A stretch of DNA of 64,000 nt from Barthelona sp. PCE (lineage: Eukaryota): assembly GCA_040285745.1 (NCBI GenBank), contig JAUFOR010000003.1, positions 1,054,001 to 1,118,000 of the forward strand, given 5' to 3'. Below are positions 2,885 through 60,540 of this stretch, piece by piece. Below the pieces are notes generated by a model. That model saw only the letters and a list, made by a program, of their open reading frames with translations. It had not been told where the DNA came from and made no database searches. The first letter of the stretch is position 1; every line of letters begins with the position of its first letter. A program made the position numbers and the translations under genes.

Positions 2885-3858
2885 CTACTGCATCAACGGT
2901 TGATTATATTGTGTTGAAGGAGCAGCATAAAAAGAATTTCTGGTAATTGAGGTCTTCTTTAAGAAAAACAACGTAGCGATTAATGGTAAAAAGAAGCATA
3001 ATTCATAAAGAAAAACGACACCGAAACTATTGGTCATCTGATCATTGCCGGATGGATATCTGTGATACTTTAACAGATGGTAGCTGTTGTAAAAGTCGAT
3101 AGAGCTTTGCAAAAACAAACAAATAAAGGCTATAACACCTATAACGATTAAAAATTGAATTTTAACCTTGAGTGTTTTTTGAGTTAAAGTAAGAGAAGCT
3201 GTGCTATAGATCTTGTAGTAAGCACAGTACGTGCATATGAAGAAGGAGATTGCGGTGACGAGAAGATAAACTGCTAGACTTAAATTAATAAAGCAAGCAA
3301 ACGTTGAAATTTCTCGATTGTGTGTTTTCCAAGGTGATGACATGTACATAATACTGAAAATGCACAAAAAGGATACGCTCAACACGAGTACAGGGTAATA
3401 AACCATTTTGAAGACCTTGTAAAACTTATGTCGGGGGAGGAATAATTTAAGATTATCCAAATAGAGTTGAAGCATCAAAGAATAGACAAAGTAACAACAC
3501 AGGGTGGAAACAAGGAAAGCAAAGTGTCTGAAAGGGTCAATACCTTGTGCATAATGAGAGAATCCTAAATGGTACAAGTCCCAGAACCATTTGGCACCTA
3601 GAGCTAAAAATTAGTGTTATGAATTGTTGCTGAGCCGATTTAGGAAAAAAAAAATCCAAACCTATTTTGAAAAAAGATAGAATCTCAACATAACAACATA
3701 CAAATACTGAAAATAAGGATAGAGATTGCCACAAACTGCTGATTCATGCGTTCTTTGTACTGTCCATGGTTTTTCTTAAACGTGGAAAGAAGAGCATATA
3801 AGATACAAATCAAACTCAGTAAGAGAAAGCAAACTCGAAGAATAGCTAATTCAATCAT
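2885..3858 (-). CDS. Multi-pass (~7 TM) membrane protein, THH1/TOM1/GPR137-like; exons 3702-3858 and 2885-3603 (291 aa)
   Basis: Exon 1 MIELAILRVCFLLLSLICILYALL...AISILIFSI joins in frame (phase 1) across intron 3604-3701 to the 230-aa hydrophobic ORF. Family call from topology only. Confidence 0.7.
3604..3701 (-). other. Spliceosomal intron, 98 nt
   Basis: GTATGT donor, ACTAATTTTTAG branch/acceptor; removal restores a continuous ORF with an ATG start. Confidence 0.85.
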
Positions 3859-4315
3859 CGATGTGTTGATCTGGGGAACGCGTCACCGTTTCAAAAAAGT
3901 GTCGAAAGAGGTGAAAAACGGGGAAACAGCCATTCACAAGTGAACTTTGCTTTGAGATCATTACATTCCGAATACTTGCGTTTAATGATTGTAGTTAGCC
4001 ACTAAATGTATGTAAAAATTCGGTGCGAGTGAGAGTTTCAGGGGAAATAGCAGTTTTCTTCTCTAAACTATAAAAGCTTGAAAAACAGATTTTTAACGAG
4101 CGTTTAGGCATTCAAGTACGTCTAGATAGCTTATGTTAAAACTAAACACGCATTTATAGATTTTAGTTTTCCCGGCATCTTTTATTTCATTTTGCACATT
4201 TTTCATTTTTAAATATGTCTCATGTGGTCTATTATTCTACGAGCAGTCAATTAAGGTCAGAAAAAAGTACCAATCATCGACTATAATAAGCTGTTTTCTC
4301 TTCTTCACCGCTTAT

Positions 4316-7300
4316 ATGAATTACCTTATTTTTATCATCGTAATAGCACTAGTTGCTACGGGATGTTTGGGGTTTGATGTCACAGAGTGTTCGTCAACAG
4401 AGTATTTCGATGTTGCATCTCTTAACTGCGTTTCTTGCGGCACAAATCAACGCGCAACCAACGATGGGCTTTCTTGTGAGTGCTTCCCAGGTAATTACAC
4501 AACTTCTGTGCCTGGCGCATCCACCCCTGCGACAAGAATTACTTGTACGGCATGCGGTTCTGGAAACGGTACGGACTCGAGTGGATATACATGCGCAAGT
4601 TGTGACTCAGGCTCAGGAGCATCTCTAGACAGCACTTTGCAGACTTGTATGTGTGCAGATGCAGGGAAATATGTTGATTATTCCACTGGTGTTGGTGTAT
4701 GTCAAGATTGTCCCAGCGGAACTGGATCGCGCGCTGACAAGCCATGGCAGTGCCTCAAGTGTGGCCCCAGACTGTCGTATTCATCATCATCTAAGACATG
4801 TGAGTGCGCCACTGGTTACCAATTAGTAACGCTAAACTCAGCTGTGTTCCCTGTTGAGGTAAGCGACAACCAACAAAACCCGCACTACTACACGATAGAC
4901 GATGCTAACCGTGGGTTTACATGTGTCGAGCAAACGGTTCTGAGCGCCTTCCTTTCTCAGTATCCTTCTTACAACAAAGTCGACATGAGAAAGGTATATT
5001 CAACTTCTACCGATACGTACAAGACGGTGACATTGACTAGCGCCCTGCTCACATCAATGCTCCCGACTGCTGCGGTTCGTTGTCGTCAGGAGAACGATGC
5101 GCGTATGTGTCAGGTATTGGGAAATCTCTGTGCTCTGGTCTACTTTGATAAGACGCATGCTGCATGCAAGTACTACGATCTGGTGTACCAAGAGCACATG
5201 GCCGTGACCAATGATCGGAGTGATTGGCCTGAGTTACTTCCTTTCCTCTATTATGATAACGCTTTGGCCACAACCATTTCCACTGAGATTGAGCAGAAGT
5301 ACGTGTTTAACACGGCAGACACGAGCGATCTGGACTCGTTTGAAGACAGAATAGATCTTATTGTTGCTAAATATGCTCTCAATGGTTCCTTTGTTGGTTT
5401 TGAACCAGTTGGTCCTCAGATTCATTCATGCGTTCGAACAAACACAGAGGCTGCACAGTGGCAGGCTTTCGGAGTCTCCCAGACTAAGCAGTGCCAGTTG
5501 GATCTCAGCGGAGCTATGCTTGAGCAGCATTTTTTTTATGACATTTACATCAGAGACATTGACCCAACTTTCGACGGTACATCAGACGGGCCCGTTTCCC
5601 TGGTGCCCGTTCCCGTCAGGGTGAAGAACCTGAGGAGCTCTTCGGGCGAGTATGTTAATCAAAATAGTGATGACTCTCAGTTGTCAGTCTCGGACGATAT
5701 ATTCACCAGGAGACTTTGGACGTTCGACCACACCCTCCCGCGCGATGATCTTGGCCAAGATTCGAGCTACTGTCGATATATGAAGAATATGAAGCTGAGT
5801 ATCACGCTTCAAGTATCAACACAATCACGAATTTACCCCCCTATCATCACAGTTGACTACGAGGAGGGCGCGTGCACGTCTTATAACTCTGGAAACGACC
5901 GCATTATGCCGCGTATTAGGGCAGCAGCCGCGCAATTCCGCAGCAATATGTTTGAAGTCGTCTACTCAATGAATCTTGATTCGATGTGGACGACAGTCAA
6001 TGTCTTCTTCTGGTCTGTGTTGGTGATGGTCCTCATCTTCCTCTTTATCAGAATGTACTTCTTCAACAGACAGCACGAGGCGAAGTTCCACGGCGTTCAG
6101 GGTACCATGTCACCACAGACGCATTCATCAAACTCTGTTCTCTTCTTCTTCAGGCAGATGAGTATAGTCGGGTCAACGGCATTCTTTATTTTCTCAGCGA
6201 TTCTCAGCATTTATTTTGTCCTCTTCTTTAAGTTCCAGGATACCGTGTACATGCTCCTCCCCACCGACTATTCCCAGTTCTACTTCATTGCAGGTGTATC
6301 TTTTGTCTTCCAGATATTAGCCATTTTCATAGATCTCATCCTTGTTTCCAAGACCCGAATTAACACCATCGACTGGGAGTACTCCAATGAGGAAGCGGAC
6401 GAGAACGATAAGAGAATGAGCACCGGTATTGACGAGAGCAGTGGTGACGTTAAGACTAATGTTTGGCGAAAACTGTATGTTTTAAATCAGTATCGTAAGC
6501 TACAAGCCAAGACACCTTATCACCGTTACCTGGTGATGATGACCATCTACCTTCTCTTTGACAAATTCGGAATCAGCGACACAGCCGCTCCGTTCCCCAG
6601 CAACAACGCCAGCGTCTTTGCTGACGATGACACGCTTGACAGCATGCACCCCCTCCTCCTACTGGGAGTCATTGCGTTCTGGTACATTACAGTGAGCGTT
6701 GTGGTTTTTGTTGTGGTGAGAATATTCAATGCTTATGTCTTCGACCCCTACTATCATTTCATCGACAGCACAACCCTCAGCAACATGTCTCTTCTTATAT
6801 CGAACCCGATGATCGACACTCTGTATCTCCACGGTAAGAATCCAAGTGGTCACAGCGATGTGTCAATGTATCGCGTGCTGGATGGTCTCAACCGAGAGGA
6901 GAAGGCACTGGTGGCTGGCAGAGCACTGAAGGTGCGTGGGCAGGGTCAGATGATGGGCGATGAGAAGACCATATCAAAGGCTAATACACAAGTTTTCAGG
7001 TTATTTATTCCTATCGATCTCCAATTGAAGATAAACCGTGCTTTAGTTAACGACAAGGACTACTCCATGTCGAAGATAGGCCAAATCGAGCAGAAAGAGG
7101 TTGATTTCACCAAAGAACTGAAGACTTTATTGAACAGCGTTGAGGAAGGTCAGATCGGATCCATCGTAAAGAATCAAACACTAGTACAGAAGGTATTCGG
7201 CTTCATTCCCGAGTTTGGCAACGTCAGCCAGACAGGAGAAGAGGATTTGTCAAAGAGAAGAAACTTTGTTTTCTTAAACCTCAGTGATCGTCAAATTCAA

Positions 7301-7507
7301 CATAGTTTCTTTTTCCAAAATTCTTTATGGAGGAGTGTGATCTTTGAGATTATGTTTATCTATATTTTCTGGTTGTTTTTGGAAAATTTCTTTTATAGTG
7401 TATTTTTTACTGCCTTGATTTGTTTTTTCCAAGGTATTATCAGGAATTTATTGATCAAAAACGCAATGTCAAAGTACTCGTTCATGGATATGAGGTTCTT
7501 AGATTAG
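4316..7507 (+). CDS. TMEM67: Meckelin (ciliary transition-zone protein)
   Basis: Signal peptide, Cys-rich repeats, CQVLGNLCAL, IDWE, VWRKLYVLNQYRKLQ, YLHGKNPSGHSDVSM and multiple C-terminal TM helices match MKS3/meckelin. Confidence 0.93.
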   Translation: MNYLIFIIVIALVATGCLGFDVTECSSTEYFDVASLNCVSCGTNQRATNDGLSCECFPGNYTTSVPGASTPATRITCTACGSGNGTDSSGYTCASCDSGSGASLDSTLQTCMCADAGKYVDYSTGVGVCQDCPSGTGSRADKPWQCLKCGPRLSYSSSSKTCECATGYQLVTLNSAVFPVEVSDNQQNPHYYTIDDANRGFTCVEQTVLSAFLSQYPSYNKVDMRKVYSTSTDTYKTVTLTSALLTSMLPTAAVRCRQENDARMCQVLGNLCALVYFDKTHAACKYYDLVYQEHMAVTNDRSDWPELLPFLYYDNALATTISTEIEQKYVFNTADTSDLDSFEDRIDLIVAKYALNGSFVGFEPVGPQIHSCVRTNTEAAQWQAFGVSQTKQCQLDLSGAMLEQHFFYDIYIRDIDPTFDGTSDGPVSLVPVPVRVKNLRSSSGEYVNQNSDDSQLSVSDDIFTRRLWTFDHTLPRDDLGQDSSYCRYMKNMKLSITLQVSTQSRIYPPIITVDYEEGACTSYNSGNDRIMPRIRAAAAQFRSNMFEVVYSMNLDSMWTTVNVFFWSVLVMVLIFLFIRMYFFNRQHEAKFHGVQGTMSPQTHSSNSVLFFFRQMSIVGSTAFFIFSAILSIYFVLFFKFQDTVYMLLPTDYSQFYFIAGVSFVFQILAIFIDLILVSKTRINTIDWEYSNEEADENDKRMSTGIDESSGDVKTNVWRKLYVLNQYRKLQAKTPYHRYLVMMTIYLLFDKFGISDTAAPFPSNNASVFADDDTLDSMHPLLLLGVIAFWYITVSVVVFVVVRIFNAYVFDPYYHFIDSTTLSNMSLLISNPMIDTLYLHGKNPSGHSDVSMYRVLDGLNREEKALVAGRALKVRGQGQMMGDEKTISKANTQVFRLFIPIDLQLKINRALVNDKDYSMSKIGQIEQKEVDFTKELKTLLNSVEEGQIGSIVKNQTLVQKVFGFIPEFGNVSQTGEEDLSKRRNFVFLNLSDRQIQHSFFFQNSLWRSVIFEIMFIYIFWLFLENFFYSVFFTALICFFQGIIRNLLIKNAMSKYSFMDMRFLD

Positions 7508-7558
7508 ATTGATGTGTAAAATGGTGTTTCTTATTTTTTCACTTTTCCAAAGTTTTTA

Positions 7559-8161: not shown

Positions 8162-8162
8162 A

Positions 8163-8956: not shown

Positions 8957-8968
8957 CCACTTTTTACA

Positions 8969-11797: not shown

Positions 11798-11799
11798 CA

Positions 11800-12924: not shown

Positions 12925-15900
12925 TCACTTCAAATTGCTCAAAAGTCCGCGCAAATATTGTAACCTATCGTTTTGGGACTTGCCAGAATCTGTTTTCAGT
13001 TTAGGCATGATAGGATGCTTCTTCATTTTCCCAAGCTGGTTATTCATTTCCTCCAGTTCATCATCCATCCTGCTCATCTGTTTACCAATCCTTGTGGGAG
13101 AGTTCACCATTGTGCATGTGTTCTTACTAATTCTTTCACGTAGAGCAGCCATTCTAGTTTCCATATCTTTACCGAAATCAATCTCCTCCTTTTCCTCTTC
13201 CAGTTCAGGTGTTTCAATGTCAATGTCGTCTCGAGTCTCCTTCAAGATGGCGAGGAAGGATCGTGGTAGCTCTGAGAAGTTAATACCTTGATTAACCAGT
13301 GGAATAGAATTTAAAACTTCTGTACAGAACTTTTTTGCACGTGGCACATCATTAAAGCTAATGCTCGCAGTAAGTCCTGACAATGCACTGATTAAATCAA
13401 GATCAGTTCGGTCTATATTCGAGAACTCAATCTTTGACAGACAACGATCAGCCAATTTGACCATTTTATCTGCAGTTTCAACATCCAACTTCTTGACGGC
13501 GCGTGATACGACTCTTGTGAGAGCAACACAACTTAACATCGGATCAACTACCATGGCAGATTGTAACACCCTTTGCACCGCTTTTATAAGGGCCATACCC
13601 AGATATAAATTGTTCGTCAAAGAAGAGAACAGCTCAAAGAGCAAATCAGCAACAGGAGATGCTTCTAGATGAATTTTAATACCTTCAAACTGGAAAATTC
13701 GAGATATCGACTTTAATAAATCATGACCAAGTTGCTGGTTTTCGTCAGATAGGTCTTCCACGCACAGAAGGTCACGGGAACGAGGCGTCAATGCTATAAT
13801 TACTTCACATGCCCATTCCTTAAAGAGCGGGTTCGTGTCCAGTTCAGTGCTCAAAAAGGAGATGGAACGGGTGTTGTTGGGATCAGCCAGCGCCTCCAAC
13901 AGCGTTTCAATGTGCTGTTCGTTTGACATGACCTCCTTCACAGGTGAAGAAAATAAAGATTTTCGCTGTGGCAAGATAGGGGTGTTTACCTCAGAGAATC
14001 GCCTGGAAGTTTGGTCAGGAGATGGTGTCTTGAACTCTTCACTCATGGAGAAAGGCGCAGAACCCGATAGAATAAGTGTATCATCACCCTCAATTTCGCG
14101 AACACGATCTTCGATTTCCCTGCGCTGCTTATTCTCCAGCACGATAGGAAGAGACCCATCGAGCTTGATGAATGCAAGGGCAAGAAACTCGAGGGCGGTT
14201 CTCTTGACCTCAATCTTTGAATGTGAGAGAAGAGCAGTTGCTACATCAAGCACAGTGCTGGAATACTCGACAACAGGAACTAAGCTTGTGAGCTCGTTCA
14301 ACAGCGCAAGGACATGCACCTTGTTCTTACCCTTCAGTGTGGGTGCAACATCACAAATCATCACAAATAGCTGGAAGGATGGCATCTCGTGACACAGACG
14401 CTTAAAGAAATCATGTTCTTCAACGATGGGAGAAGAAAGAAGTGAGGGGAGCACAAAGCCTAGCTCCCACGGCTTGATTTTATACGATATCGTCTTGAGG
14501 GGTTCGTGGATATCATTCAAGAACTTCAAGACACTGGACCAATTAGATTGTTTGGCTTGGATCATGAACGCCAGATATTTAAAGACAATGTCGATGTTGA
14601 TGATGAAAGTTTCACTGTTTGTGACCAGTAGCACTTCCATTCGCGAAAGTCCTTCAGGGTTGGCCGTTAGCATTTGGTTCTTCAGTTTGCCAGTTACGTA
14701 CAGCTCAACCTGGTCTTTGAACAGCTTGGGCGAGTACTCCTTCTCCCTCTTACGGCGCAGGGAGATATCGCGCATTGTGCCGGTTAGGTCACCCTCGAGC
14801 ACTTGTCTAACGGGGGCAATTTGTTCGGAAGCACGACGAGTTTCAGGCATGCGGCGAGCTCTGCGTTCAGCCCTAGGCTTGGGTGCCTTCGCTTCAACAA
14901 CAACAGGCACTGATGCGACAGGGGTTGGTTGCACTGGGATTTTGGGAGCAGCAACAGGTTTTGCCTGAAGATTAACAAGTTCCACTTTCTCTGAGTGATC
15001 GAGCGCACGCTCAAACCAGGTCTTCAGTGTCAACCCATCAGTCTTTTTCTTTGCTTTCTTAATGTACACATCATAATCTACATCTGAAAACATGCGCATC
15101 AAACGACCAAGGAAACACACACAGGTGCCCTTGACATCGTTTCCATGGTTGATGAAGCAAAAGCACAAGCCCTTCACAACGAGAGATATGTATTTTGACG
15201 TCATATTAGGGTTGATAAATTCTTCAATGTGCTTTTGAAGCAGGGTGAAATAGTCAGCGACTTTCCGCTCATTGAGCTTCTTGATGGACTGGAAGAAAGG
15301 GATGATAAAGCTCTTCTGTATATTCTTTTCCAACATTTGTTCAAAGATGGATAAAACCAGTTCATTATTCTTGTTATCAATAAACAACAGGCAGGGAACA
15401 AGAACCTTCCTACAGAAAACCTCAGGACACTTGAGCAGGATGGCCCCAGTTATGTTAATGAGACTAACAATACACGGTTGCACGCTCTCCTCGTTAAACC
15501 TTAGCTCCAGTGTTTGAATAAAGCCTCGGTCGATACTGATGTTCTCTTCATCATTAATAGCCTTGTATATGTTGGTTAATGCTGTAGAACGAGATTTCCA
15601 AGCACGAGCATTGATGTTCTTAGTGTATTCCTCAATAAGCACATTGATTGGAATTTTTTCGATTTTCACCTTCACAATAGGTGACACGTCACCAGTTGCA
15701 ACCACGATCTCCTCTTTCAGACTCTTAGAAAGATCAGGGAAGATCTTATGGAAGTCCACAGCGAGTTTCTTTAACTCAATAGCCAACTTAACTGCGAGTT
15801 TTCTGTTTGCAGAGCTAGGCTTGAGGATGGTGGATGCAATGGGGGAGACTGCAGTGTAGCGGATTTCCTCCATAGTGTCAACAACAAGAGTAACACAGTT

Positions 15901-18027
15901 AAGTTGAGCTTTTTGTGAACGCTGGGCGTTATAAAAGTTAAAAAACCGCTCAAAAACCGTCTCTTTCCCATAACACTTGACCCATCTTACAAAAATAGCA
16001 CACAGGCGACGGAAAAGACGTGTTTCGGTTATTTTTGGTAATGACGCATCCATCATTACTGAAAGGGCAACCATATTATAATCCTCACTGCGCTCCACGA
16101 AAAACATCATCGTTTCGCACGCTGCGATTCTAACTAATGATATAGAATCATTGCAAAAGGAAGAAAGAACACCGCAGATGGCGTCGATATCGATTCCTCT
16201 GCCTGCATTTTCCTGGCGCTTGACAGCGTCCTCCATCCAGTTGACCTTATCCTTCCACTTTGTGATGGTTGTCACAAAATTTCCAAAACCGTCAAAAGAT
16301 TGAGAAGCGAGAGAGCTCAGCGCCTCTGTGAAGACAGGGAGCGCGGTACTACGGTGTTCCTCCTGGGCCTTACTTTTTTGATTCTTCCTCCTTCTTATCC
16401 TCTTGGGAGCTTCCTCTTCGAGCTTGGCATCAGGAACTCTTTCCTTCTTCACTGGCTTTGCAATCGCAGGTTTGGCTGCGGGTTTTGATACTGCCATGGA
16501 AGTTGAGTCCACGTTGCCCTCAAGAAGATCCATAATTGCTTTTTGCTTGTGCTCATCAAGCGACTGGATCTTTACCTTCAGATCTTTAACATCATGGAAG
16601 TGCCTGCACTGTGCAATGCACTCATATGCCTTCCTCCGCACGCTGCTGTCCTTGTCGTTTGTAGCATTCAACAAGTTGGGGAGGAGACTGACAACAAAGC
16701 CTCTGAGGAACTCTTCGTCTTTCAACTCAAGAGCGCGGTGAAGAGAAAATAAAATGAAGCCGATCATGGCGTCCCTGACCTTTGGTTGACCATCGTTTAG
16801 AGCACCAGTGAAGTGCTTCACATAACTTGCGAGCGGTCTCTCACTGGATATGAGGAACCGATACAGGGAGAGCATCACAACTTCGCTTGATCTGCCTCTG
16901 ATAACGCGGACCATACTGTCAACAATATCGTTGCGGTTAACGATATCGGGACCGACGTTCAAACCAATGAAACCGATGACTTCGGCAGATGGTACCTGAA
17001 GATTACGATTGCCACTGTCTAGCGTCGTCTTCGTGGCGTTTATGATCTTTGCCACCTGATTTCCAATGTCAACTGGCCTATTGATGAGGTTCAAAACAGT
17101 GGAGATTGCAGCCTTTTTCTTAGGTACTTTTTGAGCGCTAAACTCATTCACAGCAACGTTTTTAAGGACAGGGCGCATCTTCAGGCGCCAGTAGTGCTCC
17201 GTGGTGTCAACCTCAGCACATACAACATTGATAGAAACGTTGCGTTTTTTTTGAAGGAAAGTGAGTCGGGTTGGATTGAGCACAATTTTATCCATTTCGG
17301 TTTGTATCATGTTAATTTTGGTGGAATTGATGTCTAATGTCTTAATTAAAGCAGGAAAGAATAATTTGGTGAAGTATGCAGTCAACTCAATGGAGATCTT
17401 TCGTACATTACTATCTGACTTATTTAAACAAATTGAAAAGATTGAAACAGCACTCTCAACTTCGATGGGTGATGTTTCAAAGTAAAATTCTTTCATGACA
17501 ATCAACCACATTTGTAATATAACCTTCAGGATCACTCCTCTTTGATTTTGAACATCTTGACGTAGAATATACATAAAGAATATGTCAAGATGGTGCTCGC
17601 ACATCGTGAGAATGAAATCTTGGCAAGAATTTCTCATATTGGATTTTGTTAGGATTTTACCAAAAAGAATTTCAAAATAATCCAAAAGAATAGCTTCTGT
17701 AAGTGTTCTGACATTGAATCTGTAGTATATTTGGAACAACTGGAAGCAAAAGCGTAATGACTTTGCTGTATTTTCTTTGGAAAGCCACTTTTTAAAATCT
17801 ACATTCTCCATATTCAACTGGTCTTTTTCAGGGTCTAGATCTTTCCAAATATTTAATAACTCCTCGTACGCACTACGTCGGAAGTCCTGGAGATCATGCT
17901 TAAGCCTCATACGAAGAGGAACAGCCATGTAATCTGGAGTAACAATGGCATGCTCGTCTTCTTTCGGGCCCAGCTGGACTGCGGTTGTTGGTAAGATGTC
18001 GACAGATGCCGAACTCCCCTGGAACAT
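12925..18027 (-). CDS. CKAP5: XMAP215/Dis1/CKAP5-family TOG-domain microtubule polymerase (divergent)
   Basis: PLRMRLKH...RRSAYEEL TOG1 start, HEAT repeats (DSNVRK, PKVRDA, DSSVRRKA), WKDK and WKSR turns; 1700 aa. Confidence 0.8.
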   Translation of the reverse strand: MFQGSSASVDILPTTAVQLGPKEDEHAIVTPDYMAVPLRMRLKHDLQDFRRSAYEELLNIWKDLDPEKDQLNMENVDFKKWLSKENTAKSLRFCFQLFQIYYRFNVRTLTEAILLDYFEILFGKILTKSNMRNSCQDFILTMCEHHLDIFFMYILRQDVQNQRGVILKVILQMWLIVMKEFYFETSPIEVESAVSIFSICLNKSDSNVRKISIELTAYFTKLFFPALIKTLDINSTKINMIQTEMDKIVLNPTRLTFLQKKRNVSINVVCAEVDTTEHYWRLKMRPVLKNVAVNEFSAQKVPKKKAAISTVLNLINRPVDIGNQVAKIINATKTTLDSGNRNLQVPSAEVIGFIGLNVGPDIVNRNDIVDSMVRVIRGRSSEVVMLSLYRFLISSERPLASYVKHFTGALNDGQPKVRDAMIGFILFSLHRALELKDEEFLRGFVVSLLPNLLNATNDKDSSVRRKAYECIAQCRHFHDVKDLKVKIQSLDEHKQKAIMDLLEGNVDSTSMAVSKPAAKPAIAKPVKKERVPDAKLEEEAPKRIRRRKNQKSKAQEEHRSTALPVFTEALSSLASQSFDGFGNFVTTITKWKDKVNWMEDAVKRQENAGRGIDIDAICGVLSSFCNDSISLVRIAACETMMFFVERSEDYNMVALSVMMDASLPKITETRLFRRLCAIFVRWVKCYGKETVFERFFNFYNAQRSQKAQLNCVTLVVDTMEEIRYTAVSPIASTILKPSSANRKLAVKLAIELKKLAVDFHKIFPDLSKSLKEEIVVATGDVSPIVKVKIEKIPINVLIEEYTKNINARAWKSRSTALTNIYKAINDEENISIDRGFIQTLELRFNEESVQPCIVSLINITGAILLKCPEVFCRKVLVPCLLFIDNKNNELVLSIFEQMLEKNIQKSFIIPFFQSIKKLNERKVADYFTLLQKHIEEFINPNMTSKYISLVVKGLCFCFINHGNDVKGTCVCFLGRLMRMFSDVDYDVYIKKAKKKTDGLTLKTWFERALDHSEKVELVNLQAKPVAAPKIPVQPTPVASVPVVVEAKAPKPRAERRARRMPETRRASEQIAPVRQVLEGDLTGTMRDISLRRKREKEYSPKLFKDQVELYVTGKLKNQMLTANPEGLSRMEVLLVTNSETFIINIDIVFKYLAFMIQAKQSNWSSVLKFLNDIHEPLKTISYKIKPWELGFVLPSLLSSPIVEEHDFFKRLCHEMPSFQLFVMICDVAPTLKGKNKVHVLALLNELTSLVPVVEYSSTVLDVATALLSHSKIEVKRTALEFLALAFIKLDGSLPIVLENKQRREIEDRVREIEGDDTLILSGSAPFSMSEEFKTPSPDQTSRRFSEVNTPILPQRKSLFSSPVKEVMSNEQHIETLLEALADPNNTRSISFLSTELDTNPLFKEWACEVIIALTPRSRDLLCVEDLSDENQQLGHDLLKSISRIFQFEGIKIHLEASPVADLLFELFSSLTNNLYLGMALIKAVQRVLQSAMVVDPMLSCVALTRVVSRAVKKLDVETADKMVKLADRCLSKIEFSNIDRTDLDLISALSGLTASISFNDVPRAKKFCTEVLNSIPLVNQGINFSELPRSFLAILKETRDDIDIETPELEEEKEEIDFGKDMETRMAALRERISKNTCTMVNSPTRIGKQMSRMDDELEEMNNQLGKMKKHPIMPKLKTDSGKSQNDRLQYLRGLLSNLK

Positions 18028-18110
18028 TATGCGTTTATGTCCTGGTTGAAGAAAGAGTTGATGTATGAGAAAACGTTGTTTGTTTCCAATTTTAAACCCT
18101 TATCGATACA

Positions 18111-36185: not shown

Positions 36186-36727
36186 ATATTTTGAGACTTA
36201 ACGTCCCATTTATCCTGAGAAAGGCATTGGAAACCAAATGTCTGGATGAAAGGAGGAAAAAAAGATTTACGTGATATATTTAGCTTAAGCACTTTCCGTA
36301 TCGATTTGTGGGTAGACATGCATTTTTCAACCCGTAAAACTGTAAAATGAACCTTGAAAGTGTGGTTGTCATTTTTAGCTATTATGTTTTCTTTTCAAAA
36401 AGGCAGTAGCTCATCTGTCACATTTGAATGTGGTATATAGAGCTATTTACATGGTTAAAGTAGCGATTTACAAAGATATAAAAAATGGTAGGTAGAAACA
36501 AAGTGGAACGCTGAATGTGATATACAGCATTCATTATTCTGACCCAAACAGGTCACAGCATAAACAAATAGACACAACTAAAGGAATCACTATTTTGGAA
36601 AATTGACAGGATTCTTTAAACACCTTTGCATTATTCATAGAGTAGGCATCATTCCCAGATCAAGCATTCTTTTATATCAAACATTTCAGTTTAGTGATGA
36701 AGTCTTATATTTCTCTTTTTTCCTTTG

Positions 36728-44045: not shown

Positions 44046-46529
44046 TTACAGTTCAAAAGTGTTAAAGGCAATATCTCTTGTTGAACACGGGAGCGTATCT
44101 GAAACTACAGTCTCAGAAGGAACGGCTATAGGTTCTAACAAAGTACTCAACCGTTCGCTCTTTTCATTCGTCATTTGGTCTACTACAGTTTTTAACTTAT
44201 CTTCTGCAGTAAACATAGTTTTCATATTTTCTACATCGAGAGTTACATGCTCGAATATTGGTAACTTTCTACCTTGATCATCCCTTGAAGGAACAGCTAC
44301 AAAAACGTCTCGGTTGTCAACGTTAGATGAATAACAGGGCACATCATCTCTTAAATAGTGCTCCATGACGTTCATGACCTTTGCTGTACTGTCTCTCTCA
44401 ATCATTTTATAAAGTGAAGGTATTGAGAGGTTAGTGTGATAAGAGCTTTTGATGTCAAGTACTGATGATAGATCTGGTTCACGCATTGGCTGGATTGCCG
44501 GCGTAGGGCGGACACGTTTCGCCCACGTGGCTGATGATACAATATGCGGTGAATCAAAATTACAAACAGTATCAAAAGATCTTGCCTTTTTGTTAAGATC
44601 CAACTCTGTACTTTTGATCTTGAACGTGGCAGGTTCATGGGCCCTGTTCGTGGCCTTAGGGACCAGTCCAGCATCTCTTAATGAAATAAACGATTTAGGA
44701 AGTGTGAAACTATCGTATCCACTAATGGTAAGCATATCATGCGATACCAGTCCGTGAATCTTGTTCAGTGCCGAGTGGTGGGTGCTGTCGGTGACTTGGT
44801 GCTTGGTGATGTCGTCATCAATCACAACATTCCCTGGAACAAAAGTTTTTGGTAAGGTAAATAAAAGGGAATTTTTGAAATTTGGATGTTGACCAGGCAA
44901 CAGAACGTGCTTCTGCTCCTTCCTCTTCTGCTTCTGCATATCGTCCATTTGATTAATATCATAACACAAAGCACCTTCTATTTCAGAATCATGAGCTACC
45001 TCCTCCGACTTCAGCTTTTTCTTCAAAATACGGAGCTTTGCAATGCGAGAGTCTGCTCTATTGCGGATAATGACGGTGTTGATGGCATTTCTAAGCTTAC
45101 GAACCAACATTTGCCGTTTCGGAAAGTCTACACTAAAGGACAGCCTGAAGTCTGGTTCTAACTCCTTAAATTTCGTTCCTAGCCCGTAATCTTGGTACAT
45201 GGTGGGGCCACAGTGCTCCATAGCATTGATTTCATCGAATAATACACGTTTAGAATGTTTAATACGAGAAGATCTTTTTCTATTCCTAAATAAAAATTCT
45301 TCTTCTTCAAGTGATTTTCTGACCATATCTTTGTTCTTCTTGGTCATACCTTCATCGAATTCTGTTTGTCCAGTACATATCCACGGGTTAAAGAATACAC
45401 CCTTTTGATATTTTTGCACCTGATCAAAACGAGCAAAGAAATCCTTGATTTGGGCCTGAATTTCTCCAGAACGAGAGATAGAATATCCATCATCAGTAGA
45501 TTCATCTTTTTGCAAGAGAAATTTCTGAATGCCTCCCTGCGTCATCATTTTCTCCTTGTTTTTCATTTCCAATTGCTTGTTTTGCAGCATTTTAAGTTGT
45601 GGTGTTAACGAGGGAAGCGTTTTCTCCGCTTTTTTCGCAAATTGTCGCTTAATGTTTTGCGCTTCACTGACAATGTCTCTACTGCTAACTGTATTCGGTG
45701 TAGGCAGCCCCAGGAGCTTCTTAAGCTTCCTCTGTGTTCGTGCTATGACAGCAGCTTCATCTAAAGTGACTTCACCATCTTGGAGCGCAGTGTCCACGTT
45801 CACTCGATACTGGTCCAGCAGGTCAGACAGCTCTTCGTCCTTGGTCTTAATAACCATGCGCTCCATATCATCCAATAGAGCGTCACTGACGATGCCAGGT
45901 TGTGAACTACCAACTAACTCTATAAAGTTCATGGGACTGTCGAATTCTGAAGTTTTAAACACCAGGACGCTCCTTGTTGTCCGGTACCCCTTCGGCGTGT
46001 ATCTAAACGTGATATCCACCTGTCCATCACCCGGTATAACACCTTCTGATGGAAATACTTCAAAACATGGCGGTAAATTTGTCTTTGGTGTTATTTTAAA
46101 CTGAAAATCAACAGGAACCGAGCACGAAAGAGTTATCCGGCGTGTTATTGGTTGGTTGATGCCTACTAAACCGAAATCAATCCGCTTAGGGATGTCAACC
46201 TCGTTCTTTTTTGGATAGGCATGCACAGGAATGTGTATGTTCCCATACTGTGTCTTGATCCTAATAATATCATAATAATAGCGGTATTCAGTCGGGCTAA
46301 AAGCAAGCGTAATGGTTTGACTCAAACCCTGTGGAAGGATAGGCTTTTTTTTGAATTGCAGGTCAAAATACGGAGTTGTCGGCGAGTGGACAACGTACTT
46401 TTGCTGAACTCCTGATTCGTTTGTAAGCTTAAACCGATATAGAACTGTTGTGCCCACCCGAAAGCCTCCAATGTGAATGATAGATGGGTCCGCATAGAAT
46501 AGCGCTCCATCTGTGCCCACTGATGTCAT
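44046..46529 (-). CDS. CFAP221: Cilia- and flagella-associated protein 221 (PCDP1)
   Basis: IIHIGGF, PTTPYF, F.PTEYRYYYDIIRI...IPVHAYP, IDFG, C.VPVDFQF, VIIRNRADSRI. Start placed at ATG 46529 (CCCTT leader) rather than 46583. Confidence 0.88.
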   Translation of the reverse strand: MTSVGTDGALFYADPSIIHIGGFRVGTTVLYRFKLTNESGVQQKYVVHSPTTPYFDLQFKKKPILPQGLSQTITLAFSPTEYRYYYDIIRIKTQYGNIHIPVHAYPKKNEVDIPKRIDFGLVGINQPITRRITLSCSVPVDFQFKITPKTNLPPCFEVFPSEGVIPGDGQVDITFRYTPKGYRTTRSVLVFKTSEFDSPMNFIELVGSSQPGIVSDALLDDMERMVIKTKDEELSDLLDQYRVNVDTALQDGEVTLDEAAVIARTQRKLKKLLGLPTPNTVSSRDIVSEAQNIKRQFAKKAEKTLPSLTPQLKMLQNKQLEMKNKEKMMTQGGIQKFLLQKDESTDDGYSISRSGEIQAQIKDFFARFDQVQKYQKGVFFNPWICTGQTEFDEGMTKKNKDMVRKSLEEEEFLFRNRKRSSRIKHSKRVLFDEINAMEHCGPTMYQDYGLGTKFKELEPDFRLSFSVDFPKRQMLVRKLRNAINTVIIRNRADSRIAKLRILKKKLKSEEVAHDSEIEGALCYDINQMDDMQKQKRKEQKHVLLPGQHPNFKNSLLFTLPKTFVPGNVVIDDDITKHQVTDSTHHSALNKIHGLVSHDMLTISGYDSFTLPKSFISLRDAGLVPKATNRAHEPATFKIKSTELDLNKKARSFDTVCNFDSPHIVSSATWAKRVRPTPAIQPMREPDLSSVLDIKSSYHTNLSIPSLYKMIERDSTAKVMNVMEHYLRDDVPCYSSNVDNRDVFVAVPSRDDQGRKLPIFEHVTLDVENMKTMFTAEDKLKTVVDQMTNEKSERLSTLLEPIAVPSETVVSDTLPCSTRDIAFNTFEL

Positions 46530-46583
46530 TGTACAAGGGGAAAATTGGTAAAACAGTTGTTTCTGATCTTTTAGCCTTTTCAT
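46530..46583. promoter_or_regulatory. 54-bp bidirectional promoter region CFAP221/MAD1
   Basis: Divergent ATGs, each preceded by a pyrimidine motif (TTCCCCTT on -, GCCTTTT on +). Confidence 0.55.
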
Positions 46584-47966
46584 ATGTCCGACGGTGTTTT
46601 GAGACTGACGGATCTGGCGTCGGCGACGCCTTTGATATCAAAGCATCGTGATCCTATTAAAAAGGGCTTCGTTAAGAAATCACAAGCAAATTTCTCTTCG
46701 AATGAGCGGGAATACTCTGAAAGCTTGTTCGAATCACCTGTATTTGAAGGCAGAAGTGAGCTTTCAAGATCTAAACGTTTGATAGATCAAGAGAGGTATA
46801 ATCATCTCACAGAAATTCGTAAATTGCGAAGTGAGAATGATGAAAGGGAGAAGCAGCTCCGCGAGTACCGCATAAAATACGAGAGTGCAATGATCAAGAG
46901 TGATTTAAATGAATCAACAATTTCTGAATTAAAAGAAGCTTTACAAGATAGTAGCAATCGATGTTTTTCACAAAAAGAACAGTTTCTCGAACAAATCAGA
47001 TCGTTGCGGGAAGAAAACAACAAACTGAAGACCAGCTCCACTCAAAGAAGTACATCAAGTGATGAGCTAAAGAAAATGCTTGAATTGAAAAACTCTCAGA
47101 TTGCTGCATTGGAGGAACAAATGACCATCCAAAAGGGCATAACCGATCACTACAGGGCGGACAAGACCGAGAGAAGTGTATTACCAACAATGATCAACCA
47201 GTCTAGTTCGTTATTGCAAAGAGTTTTGAGTGCTTTCGAAATTTCTGTATCAGAGGATGTTGACGATGATCTTGTGCTTTTCATGCTCACTAAGAAGCTA
47301 AATGAGTGGAAGGAGAGATGCATGACACTTGAATCACAGATGTCTAGTGAAAAGAGTGATGAATTAACAATGCAAGAGAAAGAACGTATTTTGGATTTAC
47401 AAAGCACCGTAGAAGAACTGAACCGCGAGTTGGACCGCATCAGAGCGCTCTATTACGGTGGGGGAATCCATCCTTTGAATCAAAAGGTGATGCATTTCAA
47501 AGACAACCCAAAGAATCGATTAATAGAGAGGAAATTGACACGTTTGAAAGAGTTAGAGGAGCAGAATATGAACACGGACGGTATGGACAGCAGCGTACTT
47601 GATTTAGTGAATGCAATTGAGGAGAAGAATTCATCTATTGAGGTTTTGGAGAAAGAAGTTAGTATTCAGAAGAAGAAATTGTTGAGATATCAAGAGATTG
47701 CAGGAAAACAGGTCAAGGGATTCAGGCTGTTGATCTACCGTGTTCTAGGATGGAAAATCACTCAAAACTCAGCAACAAGTTTTATTTTTGAAAATTTATA
47801 CAAAAATGTTCGTGTACACGTAAATCTTGACGACGATGGATATCAAATGACTGAGATTGAGCCAGAAAAAGAGTTTAAGAAAGAAATCAAAGTATTGTGC
47901 GAAGAAGATGAAGAAGTTTTAGGATTGTTCCTTAGTAGAGTTCTGCTTAAATCTCAATATCTGTGA
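46584..47966 (+). CDS. MAD1: Spindle checkpoint protein MAD1
   Basis: Coiled coil, Mad2-interaction motif KVMHFKDNP, RYQEIAGKQVKGFRLLIYRVLGWKI, C-terminal FLSRVLL. Confidence 0.85.
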   Translation: MSDGVLRLTDLASATPLISKHRDPIKKGFVKKSQANFSSNEREYSESLFESPVFEGRSELSRSKRLIDQERYNHLTEIRKLRSENDEREKQLREYRIKYESAMIKSDLNESTISELKEALQDSSNRCFSQKEQFLEQIRSLREENNKLKTSSTQRSTSSDELKKMLELKNSQIAALEEQMTIQKGITDHYRADKTERSVLPTMINQSSSLLQRVLSAFEISVSEDVDDDLVLFMLTKKLNEWKERCMTLESQMSSEKSDELTMQEKERILDLQSTVEELNRELDRIRALYYGGGIHPLNQKVMHFKDNPKNRLIERKLTRLKELEEQNMNTDGMDSSVLDLVNAIEEKNSSIEVLEKEVSIQKKKLLRYQEIAGKQVKGFRLLIYRVLGWKITQNSATSFIFENLYKNVRVHVNLDDDGYQMTEIEPEKEFKKEIKVLCEEDEEVLGLFLSRVLLKSQYL

Positions 47967-48729: not shown

Positions 48730-49038
48730 ATTAATTATGTGACCCAAATGTAAAACAAAGTGAAAAACTTGTCAGCAACTGAATGTTGTCTTCATTACTA
48801 AATTTACCAGTTAAAACCCTTTAAAGTAGCAAATTGTTCATACTATATTGATAAATAGTAGGTATCGGATAACAAAAAGGCAACAGTTTAGATCAAACAA
48901 AAAACGCAACTTTCATATATGAACGAATTTAATACCTTGATCAAGGATAAACACATGCATGGCAGGATTTTCCACCAAAAACAGATCATTAAATGTTTTT
49001 TGAGCCCCATTACTTTTCTTCCATCGCATTTAAATAGC

Positions 49039-49350
49039 ATGGCTTATACATTTGGACAGGGGGCTGAAAATAGCAATTACACAATGCCCAGCGATAACTA
49101 CTCATCAAATAGCAATGTGGAATTGGATGTTGAGGACATAACTCAGCGTATTGATGATTTCGACGTATGTAACACATCTCCTGTACTAAGAAGCCCACCA
49201 AATCGGAGCCCAGTAACGAGGACACCGCCAACTGGGAGCTCAGAGTCTCGTTCTTTCACTTATGTTGAGCCAACTCCACCACGCTGCATTGGTAGAGCTT
49301 TTCAACCTTTGAACCTGACTCAGATGGGTAGAGAGGGCCACAGTATATGA
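49039..49350 (+). CDS. Small low-complexity SP/TP-rich protein (103 aa; upstream ATG at 48919 possible)
   Basis: ATG after pyrimidine leader; coding-like composition; may splice onto 49406-49581. Confidence 0.6.
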   Translation: MAYTFGQGAENSNYTMPSDNYSSNSNVELDVEDITQRIDDFDVCNTSPVLRSPPNRSPVTRTPPTGSSESRSFTYVEPTPPRCIGRAFQPLNLTQMGREGHSI

Positions 49351-49407
49351 TAATTGAGCATGTATTTGCTTCTTCCATGCTTTTTTTTTTCATGACCCTT
49401 TCAAGCC

Positions 49408-49581
49408 ATGTCTGAAGATATTGATCGTGATGCGATCCTAACAATGGATGGCACTGTTTATTTCAGCACAGATGAATCAGAAGACGAGGAACAGATTATG
49501 AGAAATCAAGAGGGATTGAGAAGCAGTGAACGTTATCAACAGATGCGTGCTAGACAAATGGCTCGTGAACCGCATTCATAA
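49408..49581 (+). CDS. 57-aa acidic ORF below the ORF-track cutoff (own gene or last exon of the upstream gene)
   Basis: MSEDIDRDAILTMDGTVYFSTDESEDEEQIMRNQEGLRSSERYQQMRARQMAREPHS*; preceded by ACCCTTT; fills the gap up to the convergent gene. Confidence 0.55.
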   Translation: MSEDIDRDAILTMDGTVYFSTDESEDEEQIMRNQEGLRSSERYQQMRARQMAREPHS

Positions 49582-49593
49582 ATGGCACATTTT

Positions 49594-50365
49594 TTACTCT
49601 ACATTTTCCTGTTCAGGTTCAATTTCAGGCTTTGTTTTCTCATTTGATTGACCAATCTGATGAAGGAAACTGTCACACAGTTCCTGACAGCTGCCCATTC
49701 TGGCTTGTACATCACTAACAGCTGACAACATAGTTTCTAATTGATGTAAAACTGATGTGATGTCTTGTTCACTACTGCTATAAATAGCATCAGTTTCAGC
49801 TTGTGAGAGCACCTCTGCTTCTGATGTTGTTGCCTTACTCTCCAAAACAGCGTTACTATTCTGTAAATGTGAAATAAGTTGTTCTTGCATCATACTTTCA
49901 CTAGTCTTTGCGTTTAATTGAGTTTGAGAACTTTCTAAGTTGTTCCTCAATTGATCAATTGTTGCCATTGCTTGAGCATAGTTTGCCTTATACTCACTAA
50001 GTTCAATATCAATTTCTAACATTGTTTTCTTAAGACTGGTCTTATCATTCAACAGTGTTTGGATGCGTTCGAGCTGGGATTCGTTCTCTTGAGACTTTGC
50101 TTTAAGATTTGAAGAAAGCTCGTCGGCTTGCAAACGGCTATTCATTAAATCCTCTTTTAATCGTCTGTTACCCTCTTTGGTGCTGTTAAGTTGAAGCTCC
50201 TTAAAGTTAGTTGTTCTTATGGCCAATGAAATGCTGTCATACGAGCTCATTCTCGAGTTCTATTGAACTTGATTGTAAATCGCTAAATTCTTTGCTGATG
50301 GTTTCAATTTCCCGGTCCTTAGACTGGACAAGCAGAATTAGATCTTCCTTTGTGAGTTGATCCAT
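49594..50365 (-). CDS. NudE/NDEL1-like dynein regulator; exons 50243-50365 and 49594-50199
   Basis: Spliced N-terminus ...EFSDLQSSSIELENEL|ELQL matches NudE EFQESSRELEAELEAQL; coiled coil follows. Confidence 0.75.
50200..50242 (-). other. Spliceosomal intron, 43 nt
   Basis: GTATGA donor, ACTAACTTTAAG end; phase 0; restores the NudE motif. Confidence 0.9.
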
Positions 50366-50519
50366 GCTTCGTTTGAAATAGGAAGAAAAAGATGTAACAG
50401 TTCACTTTCTTAATCATTTGTGAAATGCGAGCACAAAACCACACTTACCTCCACATAATGAACAAAAAATTGTTCAATTCCTGTTTCGCAACTCTTCACT
50501 TTTTTATTGGGCAGTCTTA

Positions 50520-52344: not shown

Positions 52345-52807
52345 CTAATTACTCTGATTCTCCAGGCGTTCTTTAAACTCTAAAATATCTTGGTTCTTCA
52401 GGGCTAACTCGTTCTGCTTCTCCTCAATAGCCTTTTCAAGTTTGTCAGTTTCATTCTTAATCAATTGTGATTTACGGTTAGTTTCTGCAAAGATCTCATG
52501 AATATCCTTCACCATAAGAGCAGGTCCGGCCTTTTGGTATGTGACTGGTTCTTCATCTTCAGATTTTAACTTGTTCAATTCCTTAAAGTTAGAAAAAGTG
52601 GATCATTGTGCAGGCATTCTGAAATGCCTATTGCACTTTGGTGTGCCCAAAATATGTTCATACGTTGACGACAAGACGGTTCTCATTGTACCTACCGATC
52701 AATTCTTGACGTTTTTGGGTTAGCTTTGAGTATTCCATTTGGAAATTCCTAAACTCTTGAGTTTTGACTTCAATCAATTGCTGCAGTGTTGTGTTATCGA
52801 CGGGCAT
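52345..52807 (-). CDS. PFDN6: Prefoldin subunit 6 (beta type); exons 52664-52807 and 52345-52581
   Basis: Spliced ...KRQELIGRYNENRLVVN|ELNKL...YQKAGPALM...RKSQLIKNE, the PFD6 pattern; 126 aa. Confidence 0.88.
52582..52663 (-). other. Spliceosomal intron, 82 nt
   Basis: GTATGA donor, TCTAACTTTAAG end; phase 0 in-frame join. Confidence 0.92.
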
Positions 52808-54947: not shown

Positions 54948-55100
54948 CTGATTGTTAAGTTACTGTGACTTCAAACTGTTGAAAGAGTTGAGAAATTGTT
55001 ATAACAAATTCTAAAATGAAAATTCATGCATTAATCTTTCCACAACAACAAGTAAATCTCAACTGTGGCATCAAAATCATAAATTAAGAACCTGTTTTTA

Positions 55101-55841: not shown

Positions 55842-55971
55842 TTCACAAATAGAAATGGAGTAGAAAAGTGAAAAAAATGAATTCAAAAATTTTTGTTATG
55901 TAAACAACTTGTTTTTCTTTAGTTTTTACTCTGATGCACCACTCCTAACTAGAAATACGAGCCTGAGATTC

Positions 55972-56348
55972 TTATTGGCACTTCTTGGAAGAGAAACCGT
56001 TCTTTGCGACTCTCCTGACGTGCTTAAGGTAACGCATACGGCCAGTACCGGTGGAACGACGACGGGAGTTCTTTAAGGCCCAGTTGTAAGAACGCATCTT
56101 AGCCTCGGGATAACCACAGGAAGCACAGCGGCTCTTCTGGATGTGGTAGCTACGCTTGCCGCAACGAACACACAAAGTGTGGGATTTGGAGTTACGCTTA
56201 CCGAATGAGGCAGTACCTTTGGTCTAAATGTTAAGTGACGTAAAGAAACAAAGAAAATGTGCTAAACCCCCCTTTATACCATGTTGTGCTGTTTAAGTAA
56301 GCACGGCATTGGGCTCTATACACCCTTTTCTTTGTTAAAATATACCAT
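55972..56348 (-). CDS. RPL37: 60S ribosomal protein L37 (eL37); exons 56346-56348 (ATG only) and 55972-56223
   Basis: [36 protein letters not shown]...[14 protein letters not shown]. Confidence 0.96.
56224..56345 (-). other. Spliceosomal intron, 122 nt, forming a long hairpin
   Basis: ATG|GTATAT donor, CTTAACATTTAG end; alternative ATG|GTATAA donor at 56279. Confidence 0.8.
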
Positions 56349-56888
56349 TGTTAAGATATCAGAGAATAAAAGGAAAAGAAGTTGCTTATAACGATACAGT
56401 CTTATTTACTTAGCAAAAAACATGCTTTGTGCCACGGTTCACCGGTACATCAGTGTGATTGGGTGAAATTTTAGCGGAAAAAGTACCCTCCACAGAAAAA
56501 ACTTCATTTTTTCATATGAAAACACTGTGACATGTGTGTAAATGTTATACAACACGAGTTAAATCGCTGCATAACTTGTAAAAGGTAAACAGAAGAAAAA
56601 TGGAATTTCTGTTGCTAAACCCTGTTTGTTGTAAAAATTGGTATTTTTTTGATGCTTTGTATTAAATAATTACCTCTCAATGAACAAAAATTAGTTATTT
56701 GTATGGGTTACCTATTCTAAACAAAAACAGGTTCGTTTTTATAATACTTATGTTGAAGTAAATCAACAAAAAGAAATCCCAATGTATCATAAAGGCCAGT
56801 TTTCGGATCCGGAGCACTATTACTAAAACAGATTGTTGCTATCAATTTTCACCTTTTCTTTATCCATTTTTTACTTAGATTGACTCAT

Positions 56889-58730: not shown

Positions 58731-59153
58731 AATTGTAAAATTATTGTTTTTGAAATTTTGTGTTTTTGCATTTTTTGCACATGAATGTGATTGGTATCGC
58801 CTGGAAACCCTGTTTGAGATTGAATTAGGACATAAAAATGGAGAGTAGTGTAACATACATATCTGAGAAAAACCCTCCAAAATATTACCCTTTACATACC
58901 TGTTCATTGTTTATCAAGGGGTATCTACACAATACGACAGTTCAAAAATTGCATAAAGTAATCAACGAAAGTGATTTCTTTTTGGCAGGGTTTCATTGTT
59001 TTTCTTCATTCAAGTTTTGTGTACCGTTATAGGTACTTTATATTCATTTTCTGAACACGATGATCAACGAGGGAACTGAAGGCGTTTATAGACAAATGTT
59101 TTCAATTATCTTTCTTTTTCGAGCTTCTTTTCGTTTGTTATAGCAGGTTTCAC

Positions 59154-60540
59154 ATGCAAAAACCTACAAGACCGCAGAAAAGACAGCATCCATCGCTGGA
59201 AACGTCTTTCTATGCAAATAAGAATCAAAGACAGCTGAGCATGGGTATGCTTCATAATATGTTCAATGAGGGGGTACAGTTCCCCTTTAGAACACGCCTG
59301 TACAGGTTCAAGCTAATATTTAGATGTACATAGTGAGTCAGAAACTTTACACGAGATACAGCTGGGAGAGACTATTTCTGTTCCTTTTGGCGATGCAGAA
59401 AACCCCACAATGATCTCCTACGTTGTACAGAAGATTGTGGGAACAGGTAGTTTTGGTGTTGTTTTCCTAGCTACTTGCACACCCCCTGGAGGTGAGTCTT
59501 ACACGGTTGCCATCAAGAAGACATTGATGGATCGGCGTTTCAAGAACCGTGAACTCGCAACCATGAAATCATTACGGCATTGTAACGTTGTCAGATTCCG
59601 TTTAGCATTTTTTACTCCTTCATCTCAGAACGCAAACGACATATATCTTAATGTCGTCATGGAGTATTACCCAGAGACTCTAGCAAGAGTTATTAGACAT
59701 TATTTGCATCAACGTCAACGTTTATCAATTAATCTAATCCGTTTATATGCATTCCAGTTGCTTCGTGGGTTGTTCTATGTACATTCTAAGAAGATATGTC
59801 ACCGTGATATTAAACCGCAGAATATTCTTCTTAATCCCAGAACATCTCAAATAGTACTATGTGATTTTGGTTCAGCCAAGGCGTTGAAGGTAGGTGAACC
59901 TAATGTTTCTTATATCTGTTCACGTTATTATCGTGCTCCAGAGTTGATTTTTTCAGCTACCCAATATACAACTGCTATTGATATGTGGTCAATAGGATGC
60001 GTTATTGCAGAATGTTTAATAGGAAGACCATTGTTTCATGGTGAAACTGGTATTGATCAACTAATTGAAATTATGAGAGTTTTAGGAACTCCAGATCAGG
60101 ATACTATCACTAAAATGAATCCCAGTGGTTCTACTGTCTATCATCTACCTTCGATCAGACCGCATTCATTAGTTAAAATATTTGGTTTTGGATCAAGGAT
60201 TAAGCGAGATGTCAACATTCAGTATTTAGTGGATTTGATTTCTAGTTTATTGGTGTATGATCCTTCTCAACGTTTGACAGCAAAACAGTCATTATTTCAT
60301 CCATTTTTTGATTGTATTCGTAATGATGACTCAATCCCTATCGTTGTCCAATGGTCAGAAGAAGAATGGGGCCATTTCAGTGAGGATGAACGCCAAAAGA
60401 TTGGTTTCAACCCTCCAGTTAATTCTCATAGCACTCAAAACAATACTGAAAGTTTCAATGTGTCTGCAAACACAAGTACTCCTCATGATGAATCTCTTGT
60501 TAATAGACGAAAGAGGTCACATTCTACTGTGCGTTCTTAA
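59154..60540 (+). CDS. GSK3: Glycogen synthase kinase 3; exons 59154-59244 and 59324-60540 (435 aa)
   Basis: GTGSFGVV, AIKK, DRRFKNREL, HRDIKPQN, CDFGSAK, GEPNVSYICSRYYRAPELIF; N-terminus extended by an intron. Confidence 0.95.
59245..59323 (+). other. Spliceosomal intron, 79 nt
   Basis: GTATGC donor, GCTAATATTTAG end; phase 1 join (ATG G|AT) in frame with the kinase. Confidence 0.88.

Follow-up and report, generated by a model that had tools for sequence, protein, structure and literature searches.

Can RNA structure let a spliceosome with rigid spacing accept introns of extra length? This question is raised by a 64-kb stretch of the genome of Barthelona sp. PCE (GenBank assembly GCA_040285745.1, contig JAUFOR010000003.1, positions 1,054,001 to 1,118,000 of the forward strand), which we call the window and number from its first letter. 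Barthelona sp. PCE is a metamonad, a free-living flagellate with a very small genome and a relative of Giardia; its genome paper assigns it to BaSk, the sister clade of Fornicata (PMC11316075). By scanning for motifs and reading through the sequence we identified five introns in the window, of 43, 79, 82, 98 and 122 nt, the same five that an earlier note on this DNA had listed when it claimed that the longer ones fold into hairpins that shorten them toward a minimal length. Taken together, the four long introns fold into more stable structures than shuffled versions of themselves, than random segments of the window and than intergenic DNA, with the introns of the RPL37, prefoldin and GSK3-family kinase genes driving the excess. 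We lean somewhat towards the view that the Barthelona introns are of the metamonad type and that the long ones are tolerated by a spacing-rigid spliceosome by means of hairpins that fold out of the way.

The five introns, with their phases and splice signals, are as follows:

3604..3701, minus strand: 98-nt intron, phase 1, of a membrane-protein (TM) gene; GTATGT...CTAAT-TTTT-AG
50200..50242, minus strand: 43-nt intron, phase 0, of a coiled-coil protein gene; GTATGA...CTAAC-TTTA-AG
52582..52663, minus strand: 82-nt intron, phase 0, of a prefoldin beta-type gene; GTATGA...CTAAC-TTTA-AG
56224..56345, minus strand: 122-nt intron, phase 0, of RPL37, directly after the ATG; GTATAT...TTAAC-ATTT-AG
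59245..59323, plus strand: 79-nt intron, phase 1, of a GSK3-family kinase gene; GTATGC...CTAAT-ATTT-AG

A single consensus, GTAT(G/A)N...YTAAY-N4-AG, is common to all of them. The 5' site begins with GTAT throughout, extended to GTATGN in four introns and to GTATAT in RPL37, and the spacing from branch site to 3' site is invariant (YTAAY, four nucleotides, AG in 5/5), with a spacer made up entirely of A and T. When the spacer is restricted in this way, the 3' motif occurs only nine times on both strands of the window, five of them at these introns. Spliced translations are open in all five cases, and four of the five junctions are identical to those of public protein models, which were produced by RNA-seq mapping followed by GeneMark-ET, AUGUSTUS and PASA and are described as trained on mapped reads (PMC11316075). 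The TM junction (ILIFSI/SLGAKW, the slash marking the splice) is also used by public model P0121; the 242-aa protein P0123 matches the form of the coiled-coil gene that lacks the 43-nt intron; the 126-aa protein P0125 has the prefoldin junction RLVVN/ELNKL, which the Prefoldin_2 profile crosses; and the GSK3 junction QLSM/DVHSE is found in P0001 (435 aa, 100% identical; hypothetical protein PCE1_001716). A 46-nt alternative intron in the coiled-coil gene does not fit P0123. The fifth junction is that of RPL37:

56346..56348, minus strand: coding part of RPL37 exon 1, consisting of the ATG only; positions 1-52 of the Pfam L37e profile align from residue 1 of exon 2
55972..56223, minus strand: RPL37 exon 2 (Pfam PF01907, E 2e-27)

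Here splicing is forced, because an in-frame TAG directly precedes exon 2 and the N-terminus is conserved; an exon 1 of a lone ATG is likewise required, since exon 2 follows that stop codon and aligns to L37e from the first position of the profile.

The shared signals, the four junctions in public models and the RPL37 start codon uphold the five introns of the earlier note and mark them, on this evidence, as real spliceosomal introns of metamonad type, with the branch site fused to the 3' site. It is very improbable, in our judgment, that some of the five are read-through sequences carrying chance motifs. What speaks for that possibility is a 53-nt perfect consensus (GTATAT...CTTAAC-ATTA-AG, similar to that of RPL37) at 62568-62620 on the minus strand, inside the open frame of a kinase/IBR gene and at the start of its kinase domain; its removal breaks the frame, and it would be either a chance match or an unproductive splice. 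Against that possibility, four junctions are in public protein models, four of the five introns alter or complete the frame in the way that translation requires, and RPL37 would otherwise have no start codon. Relaxed motif scans of the window added no intron. They found only in-frame or frame-breaking sites inside long open reading frames, and an acceptor-like CTTAAC-AATC-AG at 54948-54963 (minus strand), right before the ATG of a SPRY-domain gene, for which the 150 nt of intergenic DNA upstream offer no plausible donor; we judged all of these to be due to chance.

The stability of the introns was measured in two ways. In the constrained fold, the first 7 nt and the last 12 nt were held single-stranded and the core was dinucleotide-shuffled 1000 times; in the unconstrained fold, each intron was compared with 200 shuffles, and the number that folded at least as well is given in brackets:

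GSK3 intron, 79 nt: constrained z -2.51 (p.018); unconstrained z -1.43 (20/200)
Prefoldin intron, 82 nt: constrained z -2.65 (p.014); unconstrained z -1.92 (7/200)
TM intron, 98 nt: constrained z -0.99 (p.142); unconstrained z -1.12 (25/200)
RPL37 intron, 122 nt: constrained z -3.32 (p.002); unconstrained z -3.35 (0/200)
Short intron, 43 nt: constrained z +0.95; unconstrained z +1.34 (189/200)

Three of the four long introns thus reach an individual p<.05 in the constrained test, and the constrained z-scores are similar at 25 C. Combined by Fisher's method, the four long introns give p values of 6e-5 (constrained) and 1.2e-3 (unconstrained), and 2e-3 and 2e-2 when RPL37 is left out. Random length-matched segments of the window (468) have a mean z of -0.11 with a standard deviation of 1.04, and 9/468 lie at z<=-2.5. 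For 396 overlapping intergenic windows, drawn from the gaps up to the one starting at 50366, the mean is -0.02 and the standard deviation 1.01; 6/396 reach z<=-2.5 and none of the 396 reaches z<=-3.3. The short 43-nt intron is, if anything, depleted in structure. The earlier note had proposed folding introns against dinucleotide shuffles and intergenic controls as its own check; carried out within the window, that check shows the excess for the set and leaves the TM intron at chance.

The hairpins that the earlier note named are, for the most part, well supported as predictions: its helices appear in the predicted minimum free energy (MFE) structures where it had placed them, and 10 of the 11 helices examined have an ensemble pair probability of 0.57-0.98. 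The GSK3 intron has its main hairpin at intron positions 16-50 (59260-59294), which leaves 79-35=44 nt outside, as had been claimed, and a 4-bp one at positions 52-63. In the prefoldin intron two hairpins adjoin (intron positions 13-27 and 28-56), with pair probabilities of 0.86-0.95; the larger corresponds to the stem reported at 52608-52636, with TTTGG/CCAAA beside it. The RPL37 intron does contain the 11-bp perfect inverted repeat ascribed to it (intron positions 10-20 and 89-99), which closes a 90-nt hairpin with a pair probability of 0.98. For the TM intron the picture is divided. The stems are present in the sequence, the inner ones at intron positions 12-18/68-74 and 40-47/57-65, but the outer TGTTATG/CATAACA stem is the one exception among the checked helices, with a pair probability of 0.02, and the folding of this intron does not exceed chance. 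The description of the 43-nt intron as stemless agrees with a constrained MFE of 0.0 and with the shuffles listed above, for this single short intron.

The favoured reading would join these observations as follows. Inverted repeats make up most of the interior of the long introns and are predicted to form hairpins in the stretch from 5' site to branch site, and in the predicted structures the outer single-stranded path measures 32-38 nt, compared with 43 nt in the unfolded short intron. A spliceosome with rigid spacing would accept additional length only if the additional sequence folded away, and long introns would consequently either carry stems or be lost. The introns, their signals, their stems and the excess stability of the set are shown by the analysis; that the stems pair in vivo and are needed for splicing is what we infer.

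Several results weigh against this reading, among them those on shortening itself. We defined the collapsed length of an MFE structure as the number of outer unpaired bases plus 2 per helix. By this measure the long introns collapse to 34-42 nt and their shuffles to a mean of 34-37 nt, and 45-80% of the shuffles collapse at least as far as the real introns (p.45-.80). Taken over the Boltzmann ensemble at 37 C, the real introns come to 28-42 nt and the shuffles to 33-36 nt, with the same picture at 55 and 65 C; over the MFE and ensemble tests together p ranges from.13 to.83. If only strict stems are counted (at least 5 contiguous pairs with a mean pair probability of at least 0.7), the collapsed lengths are 46, 40, 74 and 34 nt, where the shuffles have medians of 62, 67, 72 and 82, with fractions of.30,.14,.54 and.08 of the shuffles doing as well and a combined p of 0.13, and with a minimum of 6 bp only RPL37 collapses. 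The claimed shortening toward a minimal length is therefore not separable from shuffled sequence by MFE, by the ensemble at three temperatures or by strict stems. Because any RNA of this size brings its ends together when folded in silico, convergence of collapsed lengths is not evidence by itself, and the informative statistic is folding stability relative to shuffles. Stability has its own weak points: the TM intron fails both tests and adds nothing to the signal of the set, when folded without constraints, only two of the four fall below p.05 on their own, and in those unconstrained folds the 5' site is partly paired in three of the four. Lastly, four long introns and one short one from a single window are too small a sample to judge the general rule that the earlier note had proposed.

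The antisense strands also weigh against the favoured reading, as they fold about as well as the introns themselves (z -2.23, -1.80, -1.37 and -2.60), which places the signal at the level of inverted repeats in DNA, without an RNA-specific signature. This result speaks neither for nor against a function of the RNA, and it leaves room for a neutral origin through inverted duplication on a local scale. On such an account the hairpins would be by-products, in part chance, of the DNA events that lengthened the introns (for example inverted duplication, template switching or the insertion of a short palindrome) and would have no role in splicing. We consider this rather unlikely, and the evidence is mixed. 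The equal folding of sense and antisense strands fits it, as do the collapsed lengths, which are the same as those of shuffles, and the chance-level TM intron; moreover, RPL37 has the only individually unusual perfect repeat (a stem of 11 bp arises in 0.5% of 400 shuffles, P.005, while the perfect stems of the other three long introns have P.20-.41). However, the intergenic DNA described above has no general excess of structure, so that a purely mutational source would have to favour introns. The arm of the RPL37 hairpin has no second copy in the window, its only matches being A-rich ones with 2 mismatches, and no flanking duplication matching the hairpin was seen by eye. An association of intron length with stems is also known from Giardia, Spironucleus, Trichomonas and yeast (PMC6679479, PMC12350175).

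The RPL37 hairpin is both the longest and the most stable of the set. Ribosomal-protein gene introns of other eukaryotes often host small nucleolar RNAs (snoRNAs) or autoregulatory structures, and by this analogy the hairpins, and that of RPL37 in particular, might serve another purpose, as an intron-encoded small RNA (snoRNA-like or a Dicer substrate) or as an autoregulatory protein-binding element. Such a role seems improbable to us: a search of the whole window with Rfam gave 0 matches at the gathering score and 0 at E<=0.1, no C/D box motifs were seen by eye in the RPL37 intron, and the hairpins in three unrelated genes would be left unexplained. The more likely reading, hairpins that accommodate intron length, has already been put forward for Giardia, Spironucleus, Trichomonas and yeast.

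The closest comparison is with other metamonads. Hudson et al. (2019, PMC6679479) describe long introns (>50 nt) of Giardia, Spironucleus vortens, Spironucleus salmonicida and Trichomonas vaginalis that can form stem-loops, leaving a single-stranded distance from donor to acceptor of 35-45 nt in Giardia, about 40-42 nt in S. vortens, 41 as against 43 nt in S. salmonicida and 25-44 nt in T. vaginalis. They conclude that structure makes up for a minimal spliceosome and propose that the hairpin loop is where an intron would break in the course of becoming trans-spliced (PMC6679479); a related point is made in a 2023 re-analysis of the introns of Giardia (PMC10711314). What the earlier note had called established, namely that long Giardia cis-introns are structured and that its trans-spliced introns pair, agrees with that account, and the inference it drew, including the idea of a precursor state for split introns, is already published there for Giardia, Spironucleus and Trichomonas (PMC6679479). 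In both cases the genome is intron-poor, the 5' site is extended (Giardia consensus VTATGTT; PMC6679479) and the branch site is fused to the 3' site; the Giardia motif VCTRACACRCAG has the same spacing from branch site to AG as the YTAAY-N4-AG of Barthelona (PMC6679479). Short introns are uniform, at 40-43 nt in Spironucleus (PMC6679479) and 43 nt in the single Barthelona example, and introns above 50 nt leave about 35-45 nt single-stranded in the set of Hudson et al. and 32-38 nt in Barthelona by MFE, or 44 nt for GSK3 by the count of the earlier note. The differences are several. The Barthelona spacer is composed of A and T only (TTTT, TTTA, ATTT) rather than ACAC, and its branch site may also be CTAAT or TTAAC; Barthelona is free-living and belongs to a clade sister to Fornicata; and its intron density, five in the roughly 37 genes of the window, looks far higher. 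Collapsed length is the main argument of the published work too, and on its own it is not evidence; the methods passage of that paper contains no shuffled controls that we met, the term itself not having been searched for, and it is this control that the collapsed length of the Barthelona introns fails.

Yeast offers the same principle under other dimensions. Zipper stems shorten the distance from 5' site to branch point in RPS17B and other Saccharomyces introns, with support from mutants (Rogic et al. 2008, PMC2536676), and a 2025 study using dimethyl sulfate (DMS) in vivo reports stems that are enriched in long introns relative to shuffled controls and depleted in short ones (PMC12350175). 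Unlike those of Barthelona, these introns are 200-500 nt long, their stems leave a linker of 42-85 nt and their branch point is separate from the 3' site; the function of the yeast stems has been demonstrated by mutants and probing in vivo, whereas the Barthelona stems are known from sequence and predicted folds. In the split introns of Giardia, extended pairing unites the two halves, and the loop of a cis-intron hairpin would be a natural break point (PMC6679479). All five Barthelona introns, in contrast, are in cis, with their genes contiguous in the window.

What is new in the present case is the lineage, free-living and sister to Fornicata, together with the apparent density of introns. 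Among the papers listed by a literature search, none had barthelonid introns or the barthelonid spliceosome as its subject, and in the genome paper the word 'intron' appears once, in the methods (PMC11316075). That genome measures 10.2 Mb, with 40.3% GC, an N50 of 1,587,787 and 5064 predicted proteins (PMC11316075). The window has a GC content of about 40% and is very compact, its genes alternating between strands and often standing less than 100 nt apart. In the window, a search for tRNAs found none, and a U6-like motif matched four times against 2.2 expected, none of the matches being convincing.

Among the host genes, the kinase and the TM gene have boundaries that deserve to be given in full:

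59154..59244, plus strand: GSK3 exon 1, 30 codons plus 1 nt, with the N-terminus of P0001 (MQKPTRPQ...); longer than the 'ATGG' suggested by the junction alone
59324..60540, plus strand: GSK3 exon 2 (Pkinase, E 7e-56)
3702..3858, minus strand: TM gene exon 1, first ATG at 3858, with an open spliced translation; public model P0121 starts at an internal ATG
2885..3603, minus strand: TM gene exon 2, an open frame to the stop codon

The closest named relatives of the GSK3 protein are shaggy/GSK3 kinases, at about 50-56% identity, and a metagenome scan with it gave best identities of 48-55% among the 80 loci kept, none of them barthelonid. Of the names used earlier, 'NudE' for the coiled-coil gene finds no Pfam support, and 'PFD6' holds in so far as the protein is a prefoldin beta-type subunit, but the match lies below the Pfam cut-off (E 1.4e-5). 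The TM protein matched only the window's own annotated model in a search of 5.8 billion proteins, with no homologue, and on that basis is the product of an orphan gene. Public model P0121 (PCE1_001338, 384 aa) leaves the TM frame after FLVSTL and enters the next gene (open reading frame 1597-2730, minus strand) at KRHAAA. The linking 'intron' of about 0.9 kb (2603-3500, minus strand) has a GTGTTG donor and a TTTTGTAG acceptor, without the consensus of the five introns, and drops about 190 open codons. The model looks like a chimera that fuses two adjacent genes.

Elsewhere in the window there are three genes of ciliary interest:

4160-7507, plus strand: full-length Meckelin/TMEM67 (E 6e-107)
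44046-46637, minus strand: protein with CFAP65/74-type Ig domains
12925-18099, minus strand: CEP104/TOG-type protein

Their presence indicates that transition-zone and axonemal genes are kept in this reduced metamonad; the MKS module is not known from Giardia. Four non-coding gaps of 0.4-0.85 kb (36186-36724, 48748-49593, 56346-56879 and 58731-59154) are long for such a genome and could contain unannotated small genes or RNAs. One of them includes an open reading frame of 152 codons (48892-49350, plus strand) with no Pfam match. Between two minus-strand genes, the intergenic segment 31800-31930 (plus strand) is unusually foldable (z -2.46; 2/200 shuffles as good) and has no Rfam match.

If the window is typical, five introns in about 37 genes would imply hundreds of introns genome-wide. 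Extending the window density to the 5064 predicted proteins leads to a broader reading, which we put forward tentatively and as a possibility short of an even chance: the structure rule would be testable in Barthelona, rigid splicing would be ancestral, and split introns would be possible. If this is true, Barthelona would be the first organism in which the substitution of RNA structure for intron shortness can be tested statistically, since Giardia and Spironucleus provide only anecdotes from a dozen introns, and, should the density hold genome-wide, it would have enough introns to settle the question and would be a much better test bed than Giardia. The occurrence of this architecture, and of a link between length and hairpins, in a free-living lineage argues against a quirk of parasites. 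The YTAAY-N4-AG spacing shared with Giardia and Trichomonas would then mean that rigid, structure-dependent splicing predates parasitism and dates to the common ancestor of Parabasalia, Fornicata and BaSk, and barthelonids could hold undiscovered split introns of their own.

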